Shown: piece after piece, positions 5,705 through 46,226 of the stretch
How positions within the stretch are numbered: position 1 is the first letter of the stretch
Layout: the number at the start of each line of letters is the position of its first letter
Assembly: GCF_022846255.1 (NCBI RefSeq)
Contig: NZ_AP025682.1
Reading direction: 5' to 3' (one strand)
Length of the DNA: 64,000 nucleotides
From: Escherichia coli
GTDB taxonomy: Bacteria; Pseudomonadota; Gammaproteobacteria; Enterobacterales; Enterobacteriaceae
Notes under the pieces: model-generated
The model's database searches: none
The model's input: the letters and a program-made list of their open reading frames with translations, nothing else
Told to the model about the DNA's origin: nothing
Translations under genes and position numbers: made by a program

Positions 5705-5941
5705 TTAACGCAGCGCCCACCACTCGCGCAGGCAGGCTTTGCCTTCCGGGCAGCTTTTACAATTGCCAGAGAGGCAGCCGTCAGGTTCTTCCTGAATCCG
5801 CACGGCTTTGCCCATGCTTTCCAGCTGTTGCAGCATGGCGTTAATCATTGGCTGCGGGGTGTTCAATGTCTGGCTTATCTGGGCCGCTTCCATCCGGCCC
5901 CGTAACGCCAGCAAATCACGCACCTGAATAAGTGAAGCCAT
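5705..5941 (-). CDS. feoC: ferrous iron transport protein FeoC
   Basis: 78-aa product from ATG (MASLIQ) at 5939-5941; ORF-track start at 5950 is a TTG extension; Cys-rich C-terminus; start overlaps feoB stop. Confidence 0.85.
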
Positions 5942-8262
5942 TAATGGCAATCACCGGTGGTGCTGGCTGCGCAGCAACTGCTTACCGACTTGCGCGTTGC
6001 CAGCAGTTCGATATCCACCCGGCTACGCGCGCGACGCAGCAAACCGATAACCACGATGTTAAACAGGATAACCGCCAGAATGCACACCAGGCTGTAAGTT
6101 GGATGCTGGCTGTAGCTGGCGACCTGATAGAACAATGTTGCCAGTGAGTAAGCAATATTCAGCCCCCACAGGATGGAGAAGCCCATCCAGCCACGGCTTG
6201 ATTCACGCGCGATAGCCCCCATCACCGAGATGCACGGTACGTACAGCAGGACGAAAATCAGGTAGCTGTATGCGGCAGCTGCGCTACCGAATTTCTGATC
6301 CATCACGCCCATCGCCCCGGTACCCATTTCGCCGTCGCCTTTGCTGGCTTCAATGGGGTTCATCAGTACGCTAAGGCTGAAGGTGTCTTTCAGGCTCTGC
6401 CAGGTTTCATCTACCGCACTGAACAGCTCTTCACCGAGGTTAAATTCCGCCGGATTGAACTCTTCGTCCTGAATATTTTCTGCGGTGTAGAGGGTGTTGA
6501 GCGTACCCACCACCACTTCTTTCGCCATGGCACCTGTAAACAGGCCAACCGTTGCCTGCCAGTTATCTTCATGTACGCCAATCGGCTTGAAGACCGGGGT
6601 GATCACCCGGCTGACGGAAGCCAGCGCCGAGTCGTTGATGTTATCGACGATTTTTCCGCTCAGCGAGAAGCTGTTGAAGGCGCTCAGGAAAATGCTGACA
6701 ATGATAATCACTTTACCAGCACGCAGAACGAAGCCTTTCAGACGCTGCCAGGTCTGGATAACCAGGCTTTTAACGTGTGGTACATGGTAGACCGGCAGCT
6801 CCATGACAAACGGCGTCGCTTCACCGCGCATGATGGTGTACTTGAGCATCAGGCCCGTCAGCACCGCCATTACGATACCCAGCATATACAGCGAGAAGAC
6901 CGCCAGCGCACCGTTCTGCCCGAAGAAGGCAGCCGCGAATACTGCGAAGATAGCCAGACGCGCGCCGCAGGACATAAACGGTGCCATCATGATGGTCATC
7001 AGACGTTCACGCGGTGCATCAAGCGTACGTGCGCCCATTACCGACGGTACGTTACAACCGAAACCAACGATCAGCGGTACAAAGGATTTCCCCGGCAAGC
7101 CCAGCGCCTGCATCAGGCGGTCCATCACAAACGCCGCACGCGCCATATAGCCGGAGTCCTCAAGGAAGGAGAGGAACAGGTACATCATGCCGATCTGCGG
7201 CACCAGTGGCAGCACGGTGTTAATACCGCCACCCAGGCCCTGGGCGAGGAAGATAGTCAGCCAGTCCGGGAAGTGGAGCGTGTAGCCAATCCACTGAATA
7301 CCATGCACAAACAGCGCCACGGAACCGACATCAAACAGCGGCTGTAACGCCCCGCCGATGTTGATAGCCAGCAGGAACATCAGGTACATCACAAAGAGGA
7401 AAATCGGCAGACCGAGGAAACGGTTGAGCACGATTTTATCTACCGCAGTGGTGAAACGGCTGGGTTCTGCCGTCAGGGTGTTGCTTACCACATCACAGAT
7501 GGCAGCAATGCACTGGTAACGCGCATCGGCAATGTGCAGCGCCGGATCGTCCATCTCATTACGCAGACGGGCGAGGGCGGCATCCAGATGCTGCGACGCT
7601 TCACCGGCGTAGGCGCGGCTGTAGATATCGCCTTCCAGCATTTGCAGGCCCAGCCAGCGACGTTGTTTCAGCGGGATGTCGGAAGGCATCACTTTTGCCA
7701 GTGAATCTGCTTCGTTGAGTAGCGGCTGTGCGTAATGCACCAGTTCCACATTCTCGTTAGCTTTATAGCGATCAATCGCCAGCTTGAGCGCTTCAATACC
7801 GCGACCACGGGTTGAAACCAGCGGGATCACCGGGCAGCCAAGACGCGCCGACAGAGCATCAATTTCAATACGAATATTTTGCTTCTCGGCAATGTCGAGC
7901 ATGTTCAGTGCCACGATGCAGGGAATGCCGAGTTCCAACAGTTGCAGCGTCAGGTACAGGTTACGCTCAAGGTTAGACGCATCCACCACGTTAATCAGCA
8001 GGTCTGCGTCGCCACTCAAAATGTAGTGACAGGCGATTTGCTCATCGAGCGAGGTCTGCGATGAGATGGTGGTCAGAGAATAGGTGCCGGGCAGGTCCAC
8101 CAGCGTGACCTGATGATCGGTGGTGGAGAATTGCCCTTCTTTACGTTCGACGGTAACGCCAGCCCAGTTACCTACACGCTGACGTGAGCCAGTGAGCTGG
8201 TTAAATAACGTTGTCTTGCCAGAATTTGGATTACCAATTAAGCCAATGGTTAATTTTTTCAT
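5941..8262 (-). CDS. feoB: ferrous iron transporter FeoB (GTPase plus permease)
   Basis: 773-aa product from [18 protein letters not shown] (G1 GTPase motif) at 8262; ORF-track start extended by 4 codons. Confidence 0.93.
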
Positions 8263-8278
8263 TGTTGTTATCACCGTA

Positions 8279-8506
8279 TTAACAGGAAACCGCTTCCACT
8301 TCTAATAAGGCCAGATCTTTTTTGCGTAATACCAGGCTCACACGACGGGTTTCGATATGAATGGGGTCGCCGAGTGGAGCGACGCGCACCACATTAAAAG
8401 AGGAGCCAGGTAACATGCCAAGAGAAAGCAGTTTTTGGCGATATGCCGGGCTGATTTCACGGGAAAAGCCAGTAATTTTCCACGCAGTATCTGGAGTGTA
8501 TTGCAT
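8279..8506 (-). CDS. feoA: ferrous iron transport protein FeoA
   Basis: 75-aa ORF immediately upstream of feoB. Confidence 0.92.
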
Positions 8507-8613
8507 AGGTGCCTACTTGTTTCTCATTAACTGGATAACTACCTCATGGGGCGTTTGACAGCGACATGAGACCAGATGATTTGCCAACGAAGGAGAGATT
8601 AAATAATCAACAG

Positions 8614-8633
8614 TACAATGATAATGAGAATGG
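8614..8633 (-). promoter_or_regulatory. candidate Fur box in feoA upstream region
   Basis: caATGATAATgAgaATgg resembles the GATAATGATAATCATTATC Fur consensus; feoABC is known to be Fur-repressed. Confidence 0.35.
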
Positions 8634-8695
8634 TTTCTATCAGCAATACTTAAAATGTGTGTGAATGTTGGTTTGAATAATAATCTGACTCAATG

Positions 8696-8709
8696 TTGAT
8701 ATGGCTCAA
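8696..8709 (-). promoter_or_regulatory. candidate FNR site in feoA upstream region
   Basis: TTGAT-atgg-CTCAA, one mismatch from TTGAT-N4-ATCAA; feo is known to be FNR-activated. Confidence 0.3.
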
Positions 8710-8834
8710 GGTTATATCGCAGCGAAAATATAATTCGCATGACGAATTATTAGGGCTGGTTAATGTTTAATTAAGGTTTCAGTTGTTAATGAAGTGATAA
8801 ATATTAATGGGATATATTATGAGTTTGCTTGTGG

Positions 8835-8862
8835 AATAAAAAGGCCGGAGATATTCTCCGGC
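8835..8862 (-). terminator. rho-independent terminator downstream of tex
   Basis: ggccggagatattctccggc hairpin flanked by A-tract on + strand (T-tract on - strand). Confidence 0.6.
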
Positions 8863-8943: not shown

Positions 8944-11265
8944 TTAACGTTTTTTGCCCATTGCCGCCGCCAGCGCATCCATCATCGCGCTATTACCGGC
9001 AGGCTGCGCTTCACGCCCACGCGGTTTGGCTGCCGGGCGGTTGTTTTGCGGGCGATCGTTACCGCCACCGCGACGGGCGTTGGTTTCGCCAGGCTGCTCG
9101 TCCAGACGCATGGTCAGGGCGATACGTTTACGCTGAAGATCCACTTCCAGCACTTTCACCTTCACAATGTCGCCCGCTTTCACCACGGTATGCGGATCTT
9201 CCACAAACTTGTTCGACAATGAAGAGATGTGAACCAGGCCGTCCTGATGCACGCCAATATCGACAAACGCGCCAAAGTTGGTGACGTTGGTCACCGCACC
9301 TTCGAGGATCATACCCGGTTGCAGGTCGTTCATTGTCTCGACGCCATCGGCAAACTGAGCGGTTTTAAATTCCGGACGCGGATCGCGACCCGGTTTTTCC
9401 AGCTCTTTGATGATGTCGGTTACCGTCGGCACACCGAATTTTTCATCAGTAAAGTCAGACGCTTTCAGGTTACGCAGCTCGCTGCTGTTACCCATCAGAT
9501 CTTTCAGTGCCTGCTGTGTTGCTGCCAGAATGCGTTCCACCACCGGATAGGCTTCCGGGTGGACGGTAGACGCGTCCAGCGGGTTATCACCATGGTTAAT
9601 GCGCAAGAAGCCCGCGCACTGCTCGAAGGCTTTCGGCCCCAGACGGCTCACTTTTAACAGTTGCTGACGGTTCTGGAACTGGCCGTTCTCATCGCGCCAG
9701 GCCACGATGTTTTGCGCCATCATGCGCGTCAGGCCCGCCACGCGGGTTAACAGAGGAACAGAAGCGGTGTTGAGATCGACGCCAACGGCGTTTACGCAGT
9801 CTTCTACTACTGCATCCAGTTTGCGTGCCAGCTGCGTCTGGCTGACGTCATGCTGATACTGACCTACGCCGATAGATTTCGGATCGATTTTCACCAGCTC
9901 CGCCAGCGGATCCTGCAAACGACGGGCGATAGACACCGCGCCACGCAGCGAAACGTCGAGATCCGGGAATTCCTGTGCTGCCAGCTCGGAAGCCGAGTAA
10001 ACCGACGCGCCAGCTTCGCTGACGATCACTTTCTGCGCGGTCACTTTCGGGAACTGCTTCTGCACGTCGAGATAGAAACGTTCGGTTTCGCGGGAAGCTG
10101 TACCGTTGCCGATCGCCACCAGTTCAACATTATGCTTTTCACACAGGGCGGCAACGGTCATCGCTGCTTTTGCGGCCTGCCCGGTATGCGGGTAAATGGT
10201 ATCGGTCGCCACCAGTTTGCCAGTTGCATCGACTACCGCCACTTTTACCCCGGTACGCAGACCCGGATCGAGGCCCATCGTTGCACGCAGTCCGGCAGGG
10301 GCCGCCATCAGCAGATCGTGCAGGTTACGGGCAAAGACGTTGATTGCTTCATCTTCCGCGCGTTCGCGCACGGTGCCCATCAGTTCAGTTTCCAGATGCA
10401 TCAACACCTTGATGCGCCACGTCCAGCTCACCACACCTTTGCGCCAGCTATCCGCCGGGGCATTGTTCAGGCGCAGGCCAAGGTGATCCATGATGATTTG
10501 CTCGCAATAGCTCTCTTTCGGCGGCTCTTCGAACTGCGGATCGGCATTCAGCGAAAGCTGAAGTATGCCTTCGTTACGACCACGGAACATCGCCAGCGCG
10601 CGGTGAGAAGGCACCGTTGACAGCGGTTCGTGATGATCGAAATAGTCGCGGAATTTCGCCCCTTCCTCTTCTTTACCGCTCACCACCGTAGAAACCAAAT
10701 GCGCGTTCTTCCACAGATAATCACGCACTTTCGCCAGCAGCGCGGCATCTTCGGCAAACCGTTCCATCAGGATATAGCGCGCGCCGTCCAGCGCGGCTTT
10801 GGTATCTGCCACGCCTTTATCGGCATCAATATATTGTGCAGCGGCGACTTCTGGCGTGTGTGACGGATCGCTCCACAGCAGATCGGCCAACGGCTCAAGC
10901 CCTGCTTCAATGGCGATTTGCCCACGGGTGCGGCGTTTAGGTTTGTAGGGCAGGTAGAGGTCTTCGAGTTCGGTTTTGCTTAGGGTGGCGTTGATGGCAT
11001 TCGCCAGATCATCGGTGAGTTTGCCTTGCTCGGAAATGGACTTGAGGATCGCCTGACGTCTCTCTTCCAGCTCGCGCAGATAGCTCAGACGCGTTTCCAG
11101 ATTACGCAGCTGCGTGTCATCCAGACCGCCGGTGATTTCCTTACGATAACGTGCGATAAACGGCACGGTATTCCCTTCGTCAAGCAGGCGAACGGCAGCG
11201 TCAACCTGTTCCGGGCGCGCCTGAATTTCACCCGCAATAATGCGGCAGAACGAATCATTCATCAT
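8944..11265 (-). CDS. tex: transcription accessory protein Tex (YhgF), S1 domain protein
   Basis: 773-aa ORF recognised as Tex/YhgF. Confidence 0.93.
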
Positions 11266-43242: not shown

Positions 43243-44328
43243 ATGAAGACGTTTCCTCTGCAAAGCCTGACGCTTATTGAGGCGCAGCAAAAGCAGTTTG
43301 CGCTGGTGGACACGATTTGCCGTCATTTTCCTGGCAGCGAGTTTCTTACCTGCGGTGATTTGGGCTTAACGCCGGGGCTAAATCAACCGCGCATTACCCA
43401 GCGTGTGGAACAGGTGCTGGCTGATGCATTTCACGCACAGGCCGCGGCGCTGGTACAGGGCGCGGGTACTGGCGCGATCCGTGCGGCACTGGCGGCTTTG
43501 CTCAAATCGGGGCAGCGTCTTCTGGTGCATGACGCGCCTGTTTACCCGACGACACGGGTTATTATTGAGCAGATGGGGCTAACGCTCATTACGGCTGATT
43601 TCAATGATCTGTCGGCACTGAAGCAGGTTGTTGACGAGCAACTACCGGATGCGGCGCTGGTGCAGCATACGCGCCAGCAGCCACAGGACGGCTACATTCT
43701 GGCAGATGTGCTGGCAACGTTGCGCTCGGCTGGCGTTCCTGCATTAACCGATGACAACTATGCGGTGATGAAAGTGGCGCGAATTGGCTGCGAATGCGGG
43801 GCAAATGTCTCGACTTTTTCCTGCTTCAAGCTGTTTGGGCCGGAGGGTGTTGGCGCGGTGGTAGGCGATGCCGATGTTATTAGTCGGATTCGCTCCACGC
43901 TCTATTCCGGCGGCAGCCAGATTCAGGGCGCTCAGGCGCTGGAAGTCTTGCGTGGGCTGGTGTTTGCGCCAGTGATGCACGCGGTGCAGGCGGGGGTATC
44001 TGAACGGTTGCTGGCCTTGCTCAACGGTGGCGCAGTGGCGGAAGTGAAAAGCGCCGTCATTGCCAATGCGCAGTCGAAGGTGTTGATTGTGGAGTTTCAT
44101 CAGCCGATTGCCGCCAGGGTGCTGGAAGAGGCGCAGAAACTCGGCGCGTTGCCTTACCCGGTGGGCGCGGAGTCGAAATATGAAATCCCGCCGCTCTTCT
44201 ATCGACTTTCCGGAACGTTTCGTCAGGCGAATCCACAATCAGAACATTGCACGATTCGCATTAATCCGAATCGCAGCGGTGAAGAGACGGTGTTGCGGAT
44301 TTTGCGTGAGATTATTGCCAGTATTTAA
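43243..44328 (+). CDS. yhfS: PLP-dependent aminotransferase-like protein YhfS
   Basis: 361-aa ORF recognised as YhfS. Confidence 0.85.
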   Translation: MKTFPLQSLTLIEAQQKQFALVDTICRHFPGSEFLTCGDLGLTPGLNQPRITQRVEQVLADAFHAQAAALVQGAGTGAIRAALAALLKSGQRLLVHDAPVYPTTRVIIEQMGLTLITADFNDLSALKQVVDEQLPDAALVQHTRQQPQDGYILADVLATLRSAGVPALTDDNYAVMKVARIGCECGANVSTFSCFKLFGPEGVGAVVGDADVISRIRSTLYSGGSQIQGAQALEVLRGLVFAPVMHAVQAGVSERLLALLNGGAVAEVKSAVIANAQSKVLIVEFHQPIAARVLEEAQKLGALPYPVGAESKYEIPPLFYRLSGTFRQANPQSEHCTIRINPNRSGEETVLRILREIIASI

Positions 44329-44369
44329 TCTTGTGAATGATGTTTTCGAAAAGAATGCAGAAATAAATA

Positions 44370-44393
44370 CGCCCCCGGGTAATCCCGAGGGCG
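44370..44393. terminator. possible bidirectional terminator hairpin between convergent yhfS and yhfL
   Basis: cgcccccggg-taat-cccgagggcg imperfect hairpin (one central mismatch) in the 106-bp spacer. Confidence 0.35.
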
Positions 44394-44434
44394 CCAGGCA
44401 ATTAAACCGACGTTAACCTATTTCTATCAATGGG

Positions 44435-44602
44435 TTACTGTGCAGTAGGACCGCAGCCACCAATGATTTTAGAAATAGAAATTGCCGGGTGTAGCAGGTA
44501 GTCGTAAGAGCAGTTCTTATCACGGTTTTCAATATGACCAGTACATGCAGTTAACGTAGCCAGTACTGCGCCTACCAGTGCAACTTTAATAAATTTGTTC
44601 AT
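44435..44602 (-). CDS. yhfL: small lipoprotein YhfL (55 aa)
   Basis: Manual translation: MNKFIKVALVGAVLATLTACTGHIENRDKNCSYDYLLHPAISISKIIGGCGPTAQ; lipobox LTAC; below ORF-track size cutoff. Confidence 0.85.
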   Translation of the reverse strand: MNKFIKVALVGAVLATLTACTGHIENRDKNCSYDYLLHPAISISKIIGGCGPTAQ

Positions 44603-44814
44603 TAACATTCCCTATGTATTATATAGATTAATATTCATTGATTATATGAATATAAACAGACTGCTCATTAAGAACGATACAGGATTAATTAATTGGTGCC
44701 AGTGACTGAATGACTTAATTTTGTAAGTCGCTGTAACGATAAATATGGCGGGTCAAAAATAAATGATGTTTGTTAATTAGTTGTTTTTTATTTGCTGAAT
44801 ATATAAAGAAAGTT

Positions 44815-44843
44815 GTAAAAGAAAAGGCCAGAATTCTCTGGCC
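44815..44843 (-). terminator. rho-independent terminator downstream of cysG
   Basis: ggccagaattctctggcc hairpin followed by T-rich run on minus strand, just after cysG stop. Confidence 0.55.
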
Positions 44844-44852
44844 CGGGTTAAA

Positions 44853-46226
44853 TTAATGGTTAGAGAACCAGTTCAGTTTATCGCGCAGGCCAACAACCCG
44901 ACCAATAATAATTAGCGATGGACTGTTCATTTGCTGCGCCAGTTCGCCCAGTTGTGTGAGCGTACCGTCAATCACGCGCTGCGTGACTGCCGTTCCGTTT
45001 TCGACAATTGCCACCGGCATTTCGCCAGGCATACCGTATTCAATCAGCTTTTGCTGAATAGTTGCAGCCTGATTCAGCCCCATATAAAACACCAGCGTCT
45101 GTTTTTCTGCCGCCAGGTTTTCCCAGTCCAGCTCGCCACCGGTTTTTAAGTGTCCAGTAATTAAGCGTACGCTCTGGGCATAATCGCGATGCGTGAGCGG
45201 AATACCCGAATAGGCAGAGCAACCAGAAGCTGCGGTAATACCCGGAACCACCGAGAATGGAATACCCGCGTTGCACAGTGTTTCCAGCTCTTCTCCGCCA
45301 CGCCCGAAAATAAACGGATCGCCGCCTTTCAGACGCACCACGCGTTTACCTTTTTGCGCTTCCCGCAGCAGGATCTGGTTAATCTCTTCCTGCGGTACGC
45401 AGTGGTATCCCGCGCGTTTGCCGACGAAAACGCGATCAGCATCGCGGCGTACCAGATTCATAATATCGTCAGAAACCAGACGGTCGTAGACCACCACATC
45501 AGCCTGCTGAATTTGTTGCAGACCTTTCAGTGTCAGCAGTCCGGCATCGCCCGGACCTGCACCAACCAGCACCACTTCACCGCGATGGTCGAGCGGTTCG
45601 TTGATTAACTGTTCGGTGGTTTCAGTAATGGCTTTCTGATCGTTGTTGGCCAGCGACTGCGCCAGGCGGTCGTTAACGAATAATTTCTCCCAGAAACGGC
45701 GACGCTCACCCATCGTGGCGAACTGTTGTTTCACTCGCCCGCGTAATTGCCCGGCGTATTTCGCTACCTGGCCCAGATGTAACGGCAGCAGTGATTCAAG
45801 TTTTTCGCGCAACAGGCGCGCCAGAACCGGAGAGGTGCCGCCAGAGGAGACCGCTACCATGAGCGGCGAGCGGTCAATAATCGACGGCATAATAAAGCTG
45901 GCGGCTTTCGGCGCATCGACCACGTTACAGAAGATGCGACGAGCTTCAGCGGCTTCGCTGACGCGCTGGTTAAGCACGTCATCATCTGTCGCTGCAATCG
46001 CCAGCCAGCAGGTGTCGAGAAGGCTTTCATCAAATGGCCCTTCGACGAGGGTTAACATGCCTGCATCTGCCCATGCGGTGAACTGTGGAATAAACGCTAA
46101 TGCATTCACCGTTAAGCGAGCGCCTGCGTCTAACAGCAACCTTGCTTTGCGTTCCGCGACATCACCACCGCCGACAATCAGACAGTCGCGATCGCGTAAT
46201 TGGCAAAATATAGGCAAATGATCCAC
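44853..46226 (-). CDS. cysG: siroheme synthase (multifunctional)
   Basis: 457-aa ORF recognised as CysG. Confidence 0.95.

Follow-up and report, generated by a model that had tools for sequence, protein, structure and literature searches.

yhfL of Escherichia coli: very probably a free-standing gene between cysG and yhfS for a predicted small lipoprotein

Identity of the gene and its absence from the ORF list

The minus-strand frame at 44435..44602 of the 64,000-nucleotide stretch of Escherichia coli DNA analyzed here (the window) is, with high confidence, yhfL, a known gene that stands as a unit of its own between cysG and yhfS. The frame comprises 55 codons, starting with the ATG at 44602, and a TAA stop; its 55-aa translation, MNKFIKVALVGAVLATLTACTGHIENRDKNCSYDYLLHPAISISKIIGGCGPTAQ, is 100% identical to YhfL of E. 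coli K-12 (b3369, NP_417828.1), and the two genes differ at 4 nucleotides, every one a synonymous third-position change. The product matches Pfam PF13978 (DUF4223) with 129.2 bits against a gathering cut-off of 27 (E = 5e-38), covering profile positions 1-54 of 54. Orthology to b3369 is established by this identity, by the position downstream of cysG and by a common Shine-Dalgarno sequence, promoter with its proximal sequence and terminator hairpin, whereas the locus differs from that of K-12 in (i) an in-frame ATG upstream of the gene, open (TTA) in the window and closed (TAA) in K-12, (ii) the downstream neighbor, which is yhfS in the window and frlA in K-12, and (iii) the haplotype of the distal spacer. 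A 651-bp query around yhfL found a match in 5,425 of 5,426 complete E. coli genomes; RefSeq labels the gene "yhfL: YhfL family protein" (168 nt) in all matches listed and in the three regions that were opened, and the K-12 annotation of b3369 reads "DUF4223 domain-containing lipoprotein YhfL". The yhfL of the window is an already known, long-annotated gene. The window cysG is 99.5% identical to cysG of B2 strains, e.g., Nissle 1917.

A sequence-only reading of the same DNA had named yhfL, placed it on the minus strand at 44435..44602 with a 55-aa product, suggested K-12 yhfL for comparison and blamed length-thresholded ORF calling for the omission of the gene from the ORF track; translation, the Pfam match and the identity to K-12 bear out the name, the coordinates, the strand and the product. 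The explanation of the omission also stands. To a mechanical ORF finder the yhfL frame is an ORF of 57 aa (44435..44608) that begins at the in-frame ATG two codons upstream, and with the default threshold of 60 aa it goes unlisted; the sole ORF reported over the region is then a spurious 109-aa frame that overlaps the 3' end of yhfS. An ORF of 57 aa, falling below the 60-aa cut-off, would explain the absence from the track. ORFs of 55 aa or longer number 291 in the window (39 fall in the 55-59 aa range), and the length of the yhfL ORF alone is not beyond chance; what sets it apart is the Pfam E value, the exclusively synonymous changes relative to K-12 and the signature of purifying selection across genera. 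A 60-aa threshold loses a genuine, conserved and annotated gene, which argues for a lower threshold or for homology-aware calling of small proteins. This point is practical rather than biological, and the presence of yhfL in the window adds nothing to the question of what YhfL does.

Conservation of the reading frame and choice of the start codon

A word-indexed search recovered 269 YhfL homologues, in genera that include Salmonella, Citrobacter, Cronobacter, Leclercia, Buttiauxella, Trabulsiella, Erwinia, Mixta, Serratia, Hafnia, Edwardsiella and Xenorhabdus. In codon-level comparisons with Salmonella, Xenorhabdus, Serratia and Edwardsiella, dN/dS is about 0.04-0.19 with synonymous sites near saturation, and within E. 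coli yhfL has 0 non-synonymous and 3-5 synonymous differences. The annotated frame alone is free of stops in all 11 orthologues and paralogues compared, the other five frames carrying stops in most orthologues. Loss of the frame in related genomes, which had been named as the finding that would speak against the gene, is not what these comparisons return: the frame is open in 11 of 11. Judged by its pattern of substitutions, the yhfL frame is under purifying selection across Enterobacterales.

The same data decide whether the frame could be a chance opening in AT-rich intergenic DNA that is never translated. ORFs of such length are common in the window, as the count of 291 attests, and direct translation data for yhfL were not found; against this stand the Pfam E value of 5e-38, the 269 homologues across Enterobacterales, a dN/dS well under 1 at saturated synonymous sites, the stops in the other five frames of most orthologues and a conserved Shine-Dalgarno sequence. 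We assign a vanishingly small probability to a chance ORF, a reading that the conservation pattern effectively refutes, and treat yhfL as a coding gene.

Its start is best placed at 44602. A Shine-Dalgarno sequence, AGGGA (44609..44613, minus strand), lies 6 nt upstream of this ATG, and its purine-rich GGA core, at equal spacing, is the sole element upstream of yhfL that is conserved across six genera. The in-frame ATG at 44606..44608 (minus strand) overlaps the Shine-Dalgarno sequence and is probably not the yhfL start. A product of 57 aa (MLMNKF...) started at 44608 would agree with the extent of the mechanical ORF, which begins there, and both the window and strain LHM10-1 keep that ATG open and in phase with yhfL (ATG-TTA-ATG). 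We nevertheless regard this longer form as highly improbable: K-12 and Nissle have ATG-TAA-ATG at this place, which rules out the upstream ATG as the conserved start; its overlap with AGGGA would leave a zero spacer; family members align from an MNK/MxK start; and RefSeq annotates 168 nt. From the ATG-TAA-ATG of K-12 and Nissle it follows that the conserved start is 44602 and that the 57-aa ORF is an accident of the haplotype in the window. Mature YhfL would be identical with either start.

A predicted signal peptide, a lipobox and three conserved cysteines

The first 19 codons of yhfL (44546..44602, minus strand) encode a predicted signal peptide, assigned by a rule match and by hydrophobicity. 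Its n-region, MNKFIK, contains two lysines (Lys3 and Lys6), and its h-region, VALVGAVLATL, has a mean Kyte-Doolittle value of 2.26. The lipobox is formed by L17, T18 and A19 with C20 following, and the segment VGAVLATLTAC at residues 10-20 matches a rule of the PROSITE PS51257 type, which asks for a positively charged n-region, an uncharged hydrophobic h-region and a lipobox of the form [LVI][ASTVI][GAS]C with the cysteine between residues 15 and 35. All but one of 120 YhfL relatives carry an L[TSA][AG]C lipobox. Cys20, encoded by the TGT at 44543..44545 (minus strand), is invariant and is the predicted lipid-modified residue 1 of a mature protein of 36 aa. Residues +2 and +3 of the mature protein are Thr-Gly; the pair is found in 115 of 119 relatives, and Asp is found at +2 in none, so that YhfL, with Thr, shares the lack of Asp at +2 that characterizes Lol-exported outer-membrane lipoproteins. 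The residues of the signal peptide vary between genera and the mature part is nearly invariant; a signal peptide that drifts next to a conserved mature part is the pattern to be expected if the protein is exported.

The 36 residues of the mature part begin, after Cys20, with a variable stretch, TGHIENRDKN, followed by a conserved core, C-SYDYLLHPAISISKIIGG-C-GP. The core opens with Cys31 (codon 44510..44512, minus strand), the first conserved cysteine of the mature domain and invariant in two alignments, and the second conserved cysteine is Cys50 (codon 44453..44455, minus strand). Cysteines at mature positions 1, 12 and 31 are exactly placed in 96 of 119 relatives, and most of the others have the same pattern of three cysteines. 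The family core can be written as C-x-Y-D-Y-[LF]-[LF]-H-P-x-[IV]-S-x-S-K-x-I-G-G-C-G, and YhfL of the window carries every invariant residue. The signal peptide and its LTAC lipobox, both proposed in the sequence-only reading, are thus backed by the rule match and by 119 of 120 relatives; of the "C-terminal Cys pair" described there, the two additional cysteines prove to be near-invariant, and adjacency does not hold, since Cys31 and Cys50 are 19 residues apart.

Proposed biogenesis and location

We posit, by analogy with established lipoprotein biology, that the YhfL precursor would be exported by Sec, that Lgt would transfer diacylglycerol onto Cys20, that signal peptidase II (LspA) would then cut between Ala19 and Cys20 and Lnt would N-acylate the new N-terminus, and that LolCDE, LolA and LolB would place the lipopeptide of 36 residues in the inner leaflet of the outer membrane; sorting to the outer membrane is predicted from the Thr, in place of an Asp, at +2. 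The variable stretch of ~10 residues, TGHIENRDKN, that follows the lipid anchor may serve as a tether. Since Cys31 and Cys50 are invariant in what would be a periplasmic protein, they could be oxidized there by DsbA to a disulfide that closes a conserved 20-residue loop, and this loop could be the part that carries the function, most likely by binding a partner in the envelope. An AlphaFold2 prediction from an 86-sequence alignment is confident for the signal-peptide helix alone and gives mature YhfL a pLDDT of 44-52; the predicted model leaves the disulfide-closed loop unsupported. A search of full texts for protein-level evidence on YhfL, namely, lipidation, localization, the disulfide, mass spectrometry or ribosome profiling, returned none. 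On the evidence of its N-terminus, YhfL is probably a small lipoprotein located in the outer membrane.

Two other fates of the protein have to be weighed. YhfL could be a soluble secreted or periplasmic peptide cut by signal peptidase I rather than a lipoprotein. An older K-12 label, "conserved secreted peptide", is used for yhfL in PMC5493296, and no lipidation experiment on YhfL was found in the searchable literature, yet 119 of 120 relatives keep the lipobox with its invariant cysteine even as the remaining signal-peptide residues change, the precursor matches the PS51257-type rule, and the K-12 and Salmonella annotations now say lipoprotein. A soluble peptide is very unlikely on these grounds, and a lipoprotein is the reading that we retain. 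Such a lipoprotein might, alternatively, stay behind in the inner membrane or reach the cell surface instead of facing the periplasm from the outer membrane. Several small E. coli lipoproteins are partly exposed on the surface, and the sorting rules, through which the location of YhfL is predicted from sequence, have exceptions. In a Salmonella CRISPRi screen under selection by an anti-O-antigen IgA, two yhfL spacers were enriched, but a clean delta-yhfL mutant failed to reproduce the CRISPRi effect and had no phenotype in the single assay described (PMC12070745). At +2/+3, 115 of 119 relatives have Thr-Gly and none has Asp at +2, which is the default signal for Lol export in Enterobacteriaceae. 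We consider inner-membrane retention or surface exposure unlikely and favor a periplasm-facing lipoprotein of the outer membrane.

An AT-rich, probable promoter region between two terminator-like hairpins

The spacer between cysG and yhfL (44603..44814) has 26.9% GC, compared with a mean of 52.6% over the window. By GC content it ranks in the bottom 0.06% of 212-bp segments, and it overlaps the segment of that length with the highest AT content in the 64 kb. The AT-rich character extends beyond E. coli: the 250 bp upstream of yhfL have 25-32% GC in Salmonella, Xenorhabdus, Serratia and Edwardsiella, although the upstream neighbors differ. The spacer is a probable promoter region. A -10 hexamer with the perfect consensus, TATAAT (44641..44646, minus strand), does not vary among the window, LHM10-1, Nissle and K-12, and it stands 19 nt after a -35-like hexamer, TTAATG (44666..44671, minus strand; TTAACG in K-12), in agreement with the sequence-based assignment in PMC3946193. 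In the K-12 spacer, genomic SELEX located an RpoD promoter to which "TTAACG-19-TATAAT" was assigned and which was marked for H-NS (Shimada et al., PMC3946193), and an RpoS SELEX peak falls in the same spacer (PMC5493296). Transcription of yhfL would most likely start from TTAATG-19-TATAAT within an H-NS-bound AT-rich spacer; this most likely promoter is deduced from sequence and from the published SELEX peaks rather than from a mapped start site, and its 19-nt spacer is longer than optimal. A promoter scanner left TTAATG-19-TATAAT unreported because its spacers were limited to 16-18 nt; its one match (44602-44629), on the plus strand, is below chance expectation. An alignment of promoter regions across six genera contained nothing alignable upstream of yhfL beyond the Shine-Dalgarno sequence and the ATG. 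The strongly AT-rich region of ~200 bp noted earlier from the sequence is fully apparent in these figures, and its role as the probable carrier of the promoter agrees with the published SELEX data (PMC3946193, PMC5493296) and with the corresponding element at 44671..44641.

Terminator-like structures flank the unit. Directly after the stop of cysG (CDS 44853..46226), a hairpin at 44825..44844 (minus strand) with an 8-bp stem containing 5 GC pairs is followed by TTTCTTTTAC, a T-run. K-12, Nissle and LHM10-1 all retain this hairpin, which is probably where transcription of nirBDC-cysG stops and which probably insulates yhfL from that transcript. On the far side of the gene, a stronger, intrinsic-terminator-like hairpin (44359..44394, minus strand) combines an 11-bp stem (9 GC pairs), the loop ATTA and a T-rich tail; it is conserved in strains with the frl genes (K-12) and in those that lack them. 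The RNA of 44355-44434 folds at -33 kcal/mol (z = -4.0), and 0 of 200 shuffles fold as well. An Rfam scan of 44200-45000 at E <= 1 found no known RNA; the two matches, at 22.9 and 19.4 bits against gathering scores of 111 and 50, are at chance level.

Genomic neighborhood

Within Enterobacteriaceae, yhfL belongs to the fixed backbone, its place being between cysG and trpS, with differing islands inserted on either side of it. The order in Buttiauxella is cysG-yhfL-trpS; Cronobacter has frl genes upstream of yhfL, and Salmonella and Citrobacter have bigA there; E. coli K-12 carries frlABCDR and yhfS-Z downstream; and in the window and in Nissle 1917 yhfS-Z follows directly. Across eight further genera we found no operon partner for yhfL: the neighbors vary, and yhfL is always alone. 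With neighbors that change by genus and an AT-rich upstream region of its own that is kept, yhfL is a single-gene unit. YhfL of Salmonella enterica ("putative outer membrane lipoprotein", STM14_RS18465 / SL3447) illustrates how much of the locus is retained: 78% identical to the protein of the window, it shares the lipobox, the three cysteines, the conserved core and the AT-rich upstream region, but it has 56 aa, its gene has bigA and trpS as neighbors where that of the window has cysG and yhfS, and its promoter region cannot be aligned.

The family also has members on plasmids. A paralogue encoded on the E. marmotae IncI-gamma/K1 plasmid pRHBSTW-00814_2 (WP_072016859.1) is 56% identical to YhfL. 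The plasmid paralogues share with YhfL its length, a lipobox, the cysteine spacing and the core ...CxYDYLLHPAISxSKIIGGCG..., and differ in setting: they reside on conjugative Escherichia plasmids, directly downstream of a gene for an inverse autotransporter.

Relatives and possible function

YhfL is a tightly conserved predicted lipopeptide of 36 residues that is confined to Enterobacterales and is still a "y-gene" product. A profile search of PDB sequences gave 0 structural relatives at E <= 10. A profile of the mature domain, run against 1.84 billion representatives, retrieved 63 proteins, nearly all of them short; the three long matches consisted of multiple short repetitive stretches and were judged spurious, and no informative domain fusions occur among the 63 cluster representatives. 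A literature search for "DUF4223" found no papers on the family, and mentions of yhfL mostly concern an unrelated Bacillus gene of equal name or are entries in lists. The reports on the enterobacterial gene are high-throughput ones; at the transcript level, yhfL was the most repressed gene on Nac induction (PMC5217608), was up-regulated by FeSO4 in O157:H7 (PMC11061345) and has been proposed to have an expression linked to acquired antibiotic resistance (PMC4351646).

Several candidate identities were tried and rejected. The sole NCBIfam match, to the LptM family (NF047847), scores 12.6 bits against a cut-off of 27.7 and covers residues 1-20 only. LptM (YifL), a small lipoprotein of the outer membrane, helps the LPS translocon to mature. 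YhfL and LptM are alike as very small enterobacterial lipoproteins with an N-terminus of the Lol-export type, but their mature parts are unrelated and the similarity is confined to the signal peptide and the lipobox. As a phage o-spanin of the Rz1 type YhfL fares no better: its neighbors are cysG and yhfS, with no lysis cassette, and a Pfam scan shows DUF4223 only. Carriage by phages was likewise discarded, the four matches in a phage collection being chromosomal Salmonella contigs or unannotated fragments. Among PADLOC-DB families of known anti-phage defense, 0 matched YhfL at E <= 1.

One speculative role can be drawn by analogy. A cysteine-closed loop might act as a dedicated binding module, and YhfL would then assist an outer-membrane machine or large beta-barrel adhesins as a small accessory lipoprotein, much as LptM serves LptD; we regard this as a long shot. 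The one hint is positional: in two settings a gene of the YhfL family follows a giant adhesin gene at a distance of ~200 bp, both being on one strand. The adhesin gene is bigA in Salmonella and Citrobacter chromosomes, and it encodes an inverse autotransporter on IncI-type plasmids of E. marmotae and E. coli, where a DsbA-family gene also lies close by. Most yhfL contexts, that of the window included, have no adhesin neighbor, and insertion into a variable site also accounts for the adjacency of bigA and yhfL. A partner or a phenotype of YhfL, if found, would be a modest advance in envelope biology.

Haplotypes flanking yhfL in the window

The frlABCDR operon, downstream of yhfL in K-12, is absent from the window, as it is from Nissle 1917. 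Alignment of the junction equates 44359..44480 of the window with K-12 3499570..3499691, and 44151..44329 with K-12 3504934..3505112; between the two blocks, immediately before the 3' end of yhfS, the window has 29 nt (44330..44358) and K-12 has 5,242 bp. Of 5,426 complete E. coli genomes, at least 854 have this frl-less junction. In its distal half, the spacer between cysG and yhfL differs from K-12 and is a rare haplotype: identity of at least 95% over the 651-bp region is reached in only 4 of 5,427 matching records, and cysG is at least 99% identical in 202.

The yhfL locus in E. coli

The fructoselysine operon frlABCDR, which in K-12 lies between yhfL and yhfS (5,242 bp, K-12 positions 3499692-3504933), is missing from the window, where the yhfL terminator is followed by 29 nt and then by the 3′ end of yhfS (junction at 44330-44358, within the context 43243-44434). 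Nissle 1917 and LHM10-1 share this frl-less arrangement; among 5,426 complete E. coli genomes, the junction recurs in at least 854. In Cronobacter, unlike in K-12, the frl genes are found upstream of yhfL; the side of yhfL on which the operon was inserted therefore differs between lineages.

The distal half of the spacer between cysG and yhfL (window ~44700-44800) is a divergent haplotype: the window carries ATTTATTTTTGACCCGCCATATTTATCG where K-12 and Nissle have ATCTGCTAATGG and GTTATATTCACCG, separated by a three-position alignment gap. Of the 5,427 records that match a 651-bp region around yhfL, just 4 reach at least 95% identity over it, the best at 97.2%, in contrast to the adjacent cysG, for which 202 records show at least 99% identity; the ~130 nt of the spacer nearest the promoter are conserved. 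The divergence suggests local recombination or, alternatively, fast turnover within an AT-rich spacer of the H-NS type. At the gene-proximal end (44603-44608), a one-base difference, TTA in the window versus TAA in K-12 and Nissle, opens an upstream in-frame ATG, and ORF callers therefore yield a 57-aa product in the window strain that is impossible in K-12, a minor trap for automatic start-codon assignment.

YhfL-family genes in other genomic settings

At three loci, a YhfL-family gene lies ~200 bp downstream of, and on the same strand as, a gene for a giant outer-membrane adhesin. The adhesin is BigA on the chromosomes of Salmonella (locus L004, 1-4171) and Citrobacter (L013, 1-5171) and an inverse-autotransporter beta-domain protein on the E. 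marmotae plasmid pRHBSTW-00814_2 (L011, 1556-5168), an IncI-gamma/K1 conjugative plasmid; the YhfL-family member there is a paralogue with 56% identity, and a DsbA-family gene is found 2 kb away. This adjacency could reflect either coincident insertion sites or a functional link.

In the plasmid collection (matches H37-H43 and 19 more), genuine plasmids with YhfL-family genes come from Rahnella (11 records), Erwinia (5) and Escherichia; on Erwinia sorbitola pla1 the gene adjoins a Qnr-family gene, an integrase gene and an H-NS-family gene. Several multi-megabase “plasmid” or “phage” records with yhfL proved to be mislabelled chromosomes.

Beyond Enterobacteriaceae, the surroundings of yhfL are wholly different. 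The Serratia silvae orthologue (L008, 4001-4168), the start codon of which is called as TTG, is separated by ~750 bp from the downstream speFL leader peptide and speF.

A second AT-rich stretch

At ~8590-8840 lies the window's second most AT-rich stretch (~30% GC). On one side it is bordered by a minus-strand 75-aa ORF (8279-8506) and, further along that strand, a 777-aa ORF (5941-8274), and on the other by a 773-aa ORF (8944-11265). The sizes of the 75-aa and 777-aa ORFs are typical of feoA and feoB. The ~8590-8840 stretch is probably the counterpart of the K-12 yhgF-feoA spacer, which is listed as carrying an H-NS mark (PMC3946193).
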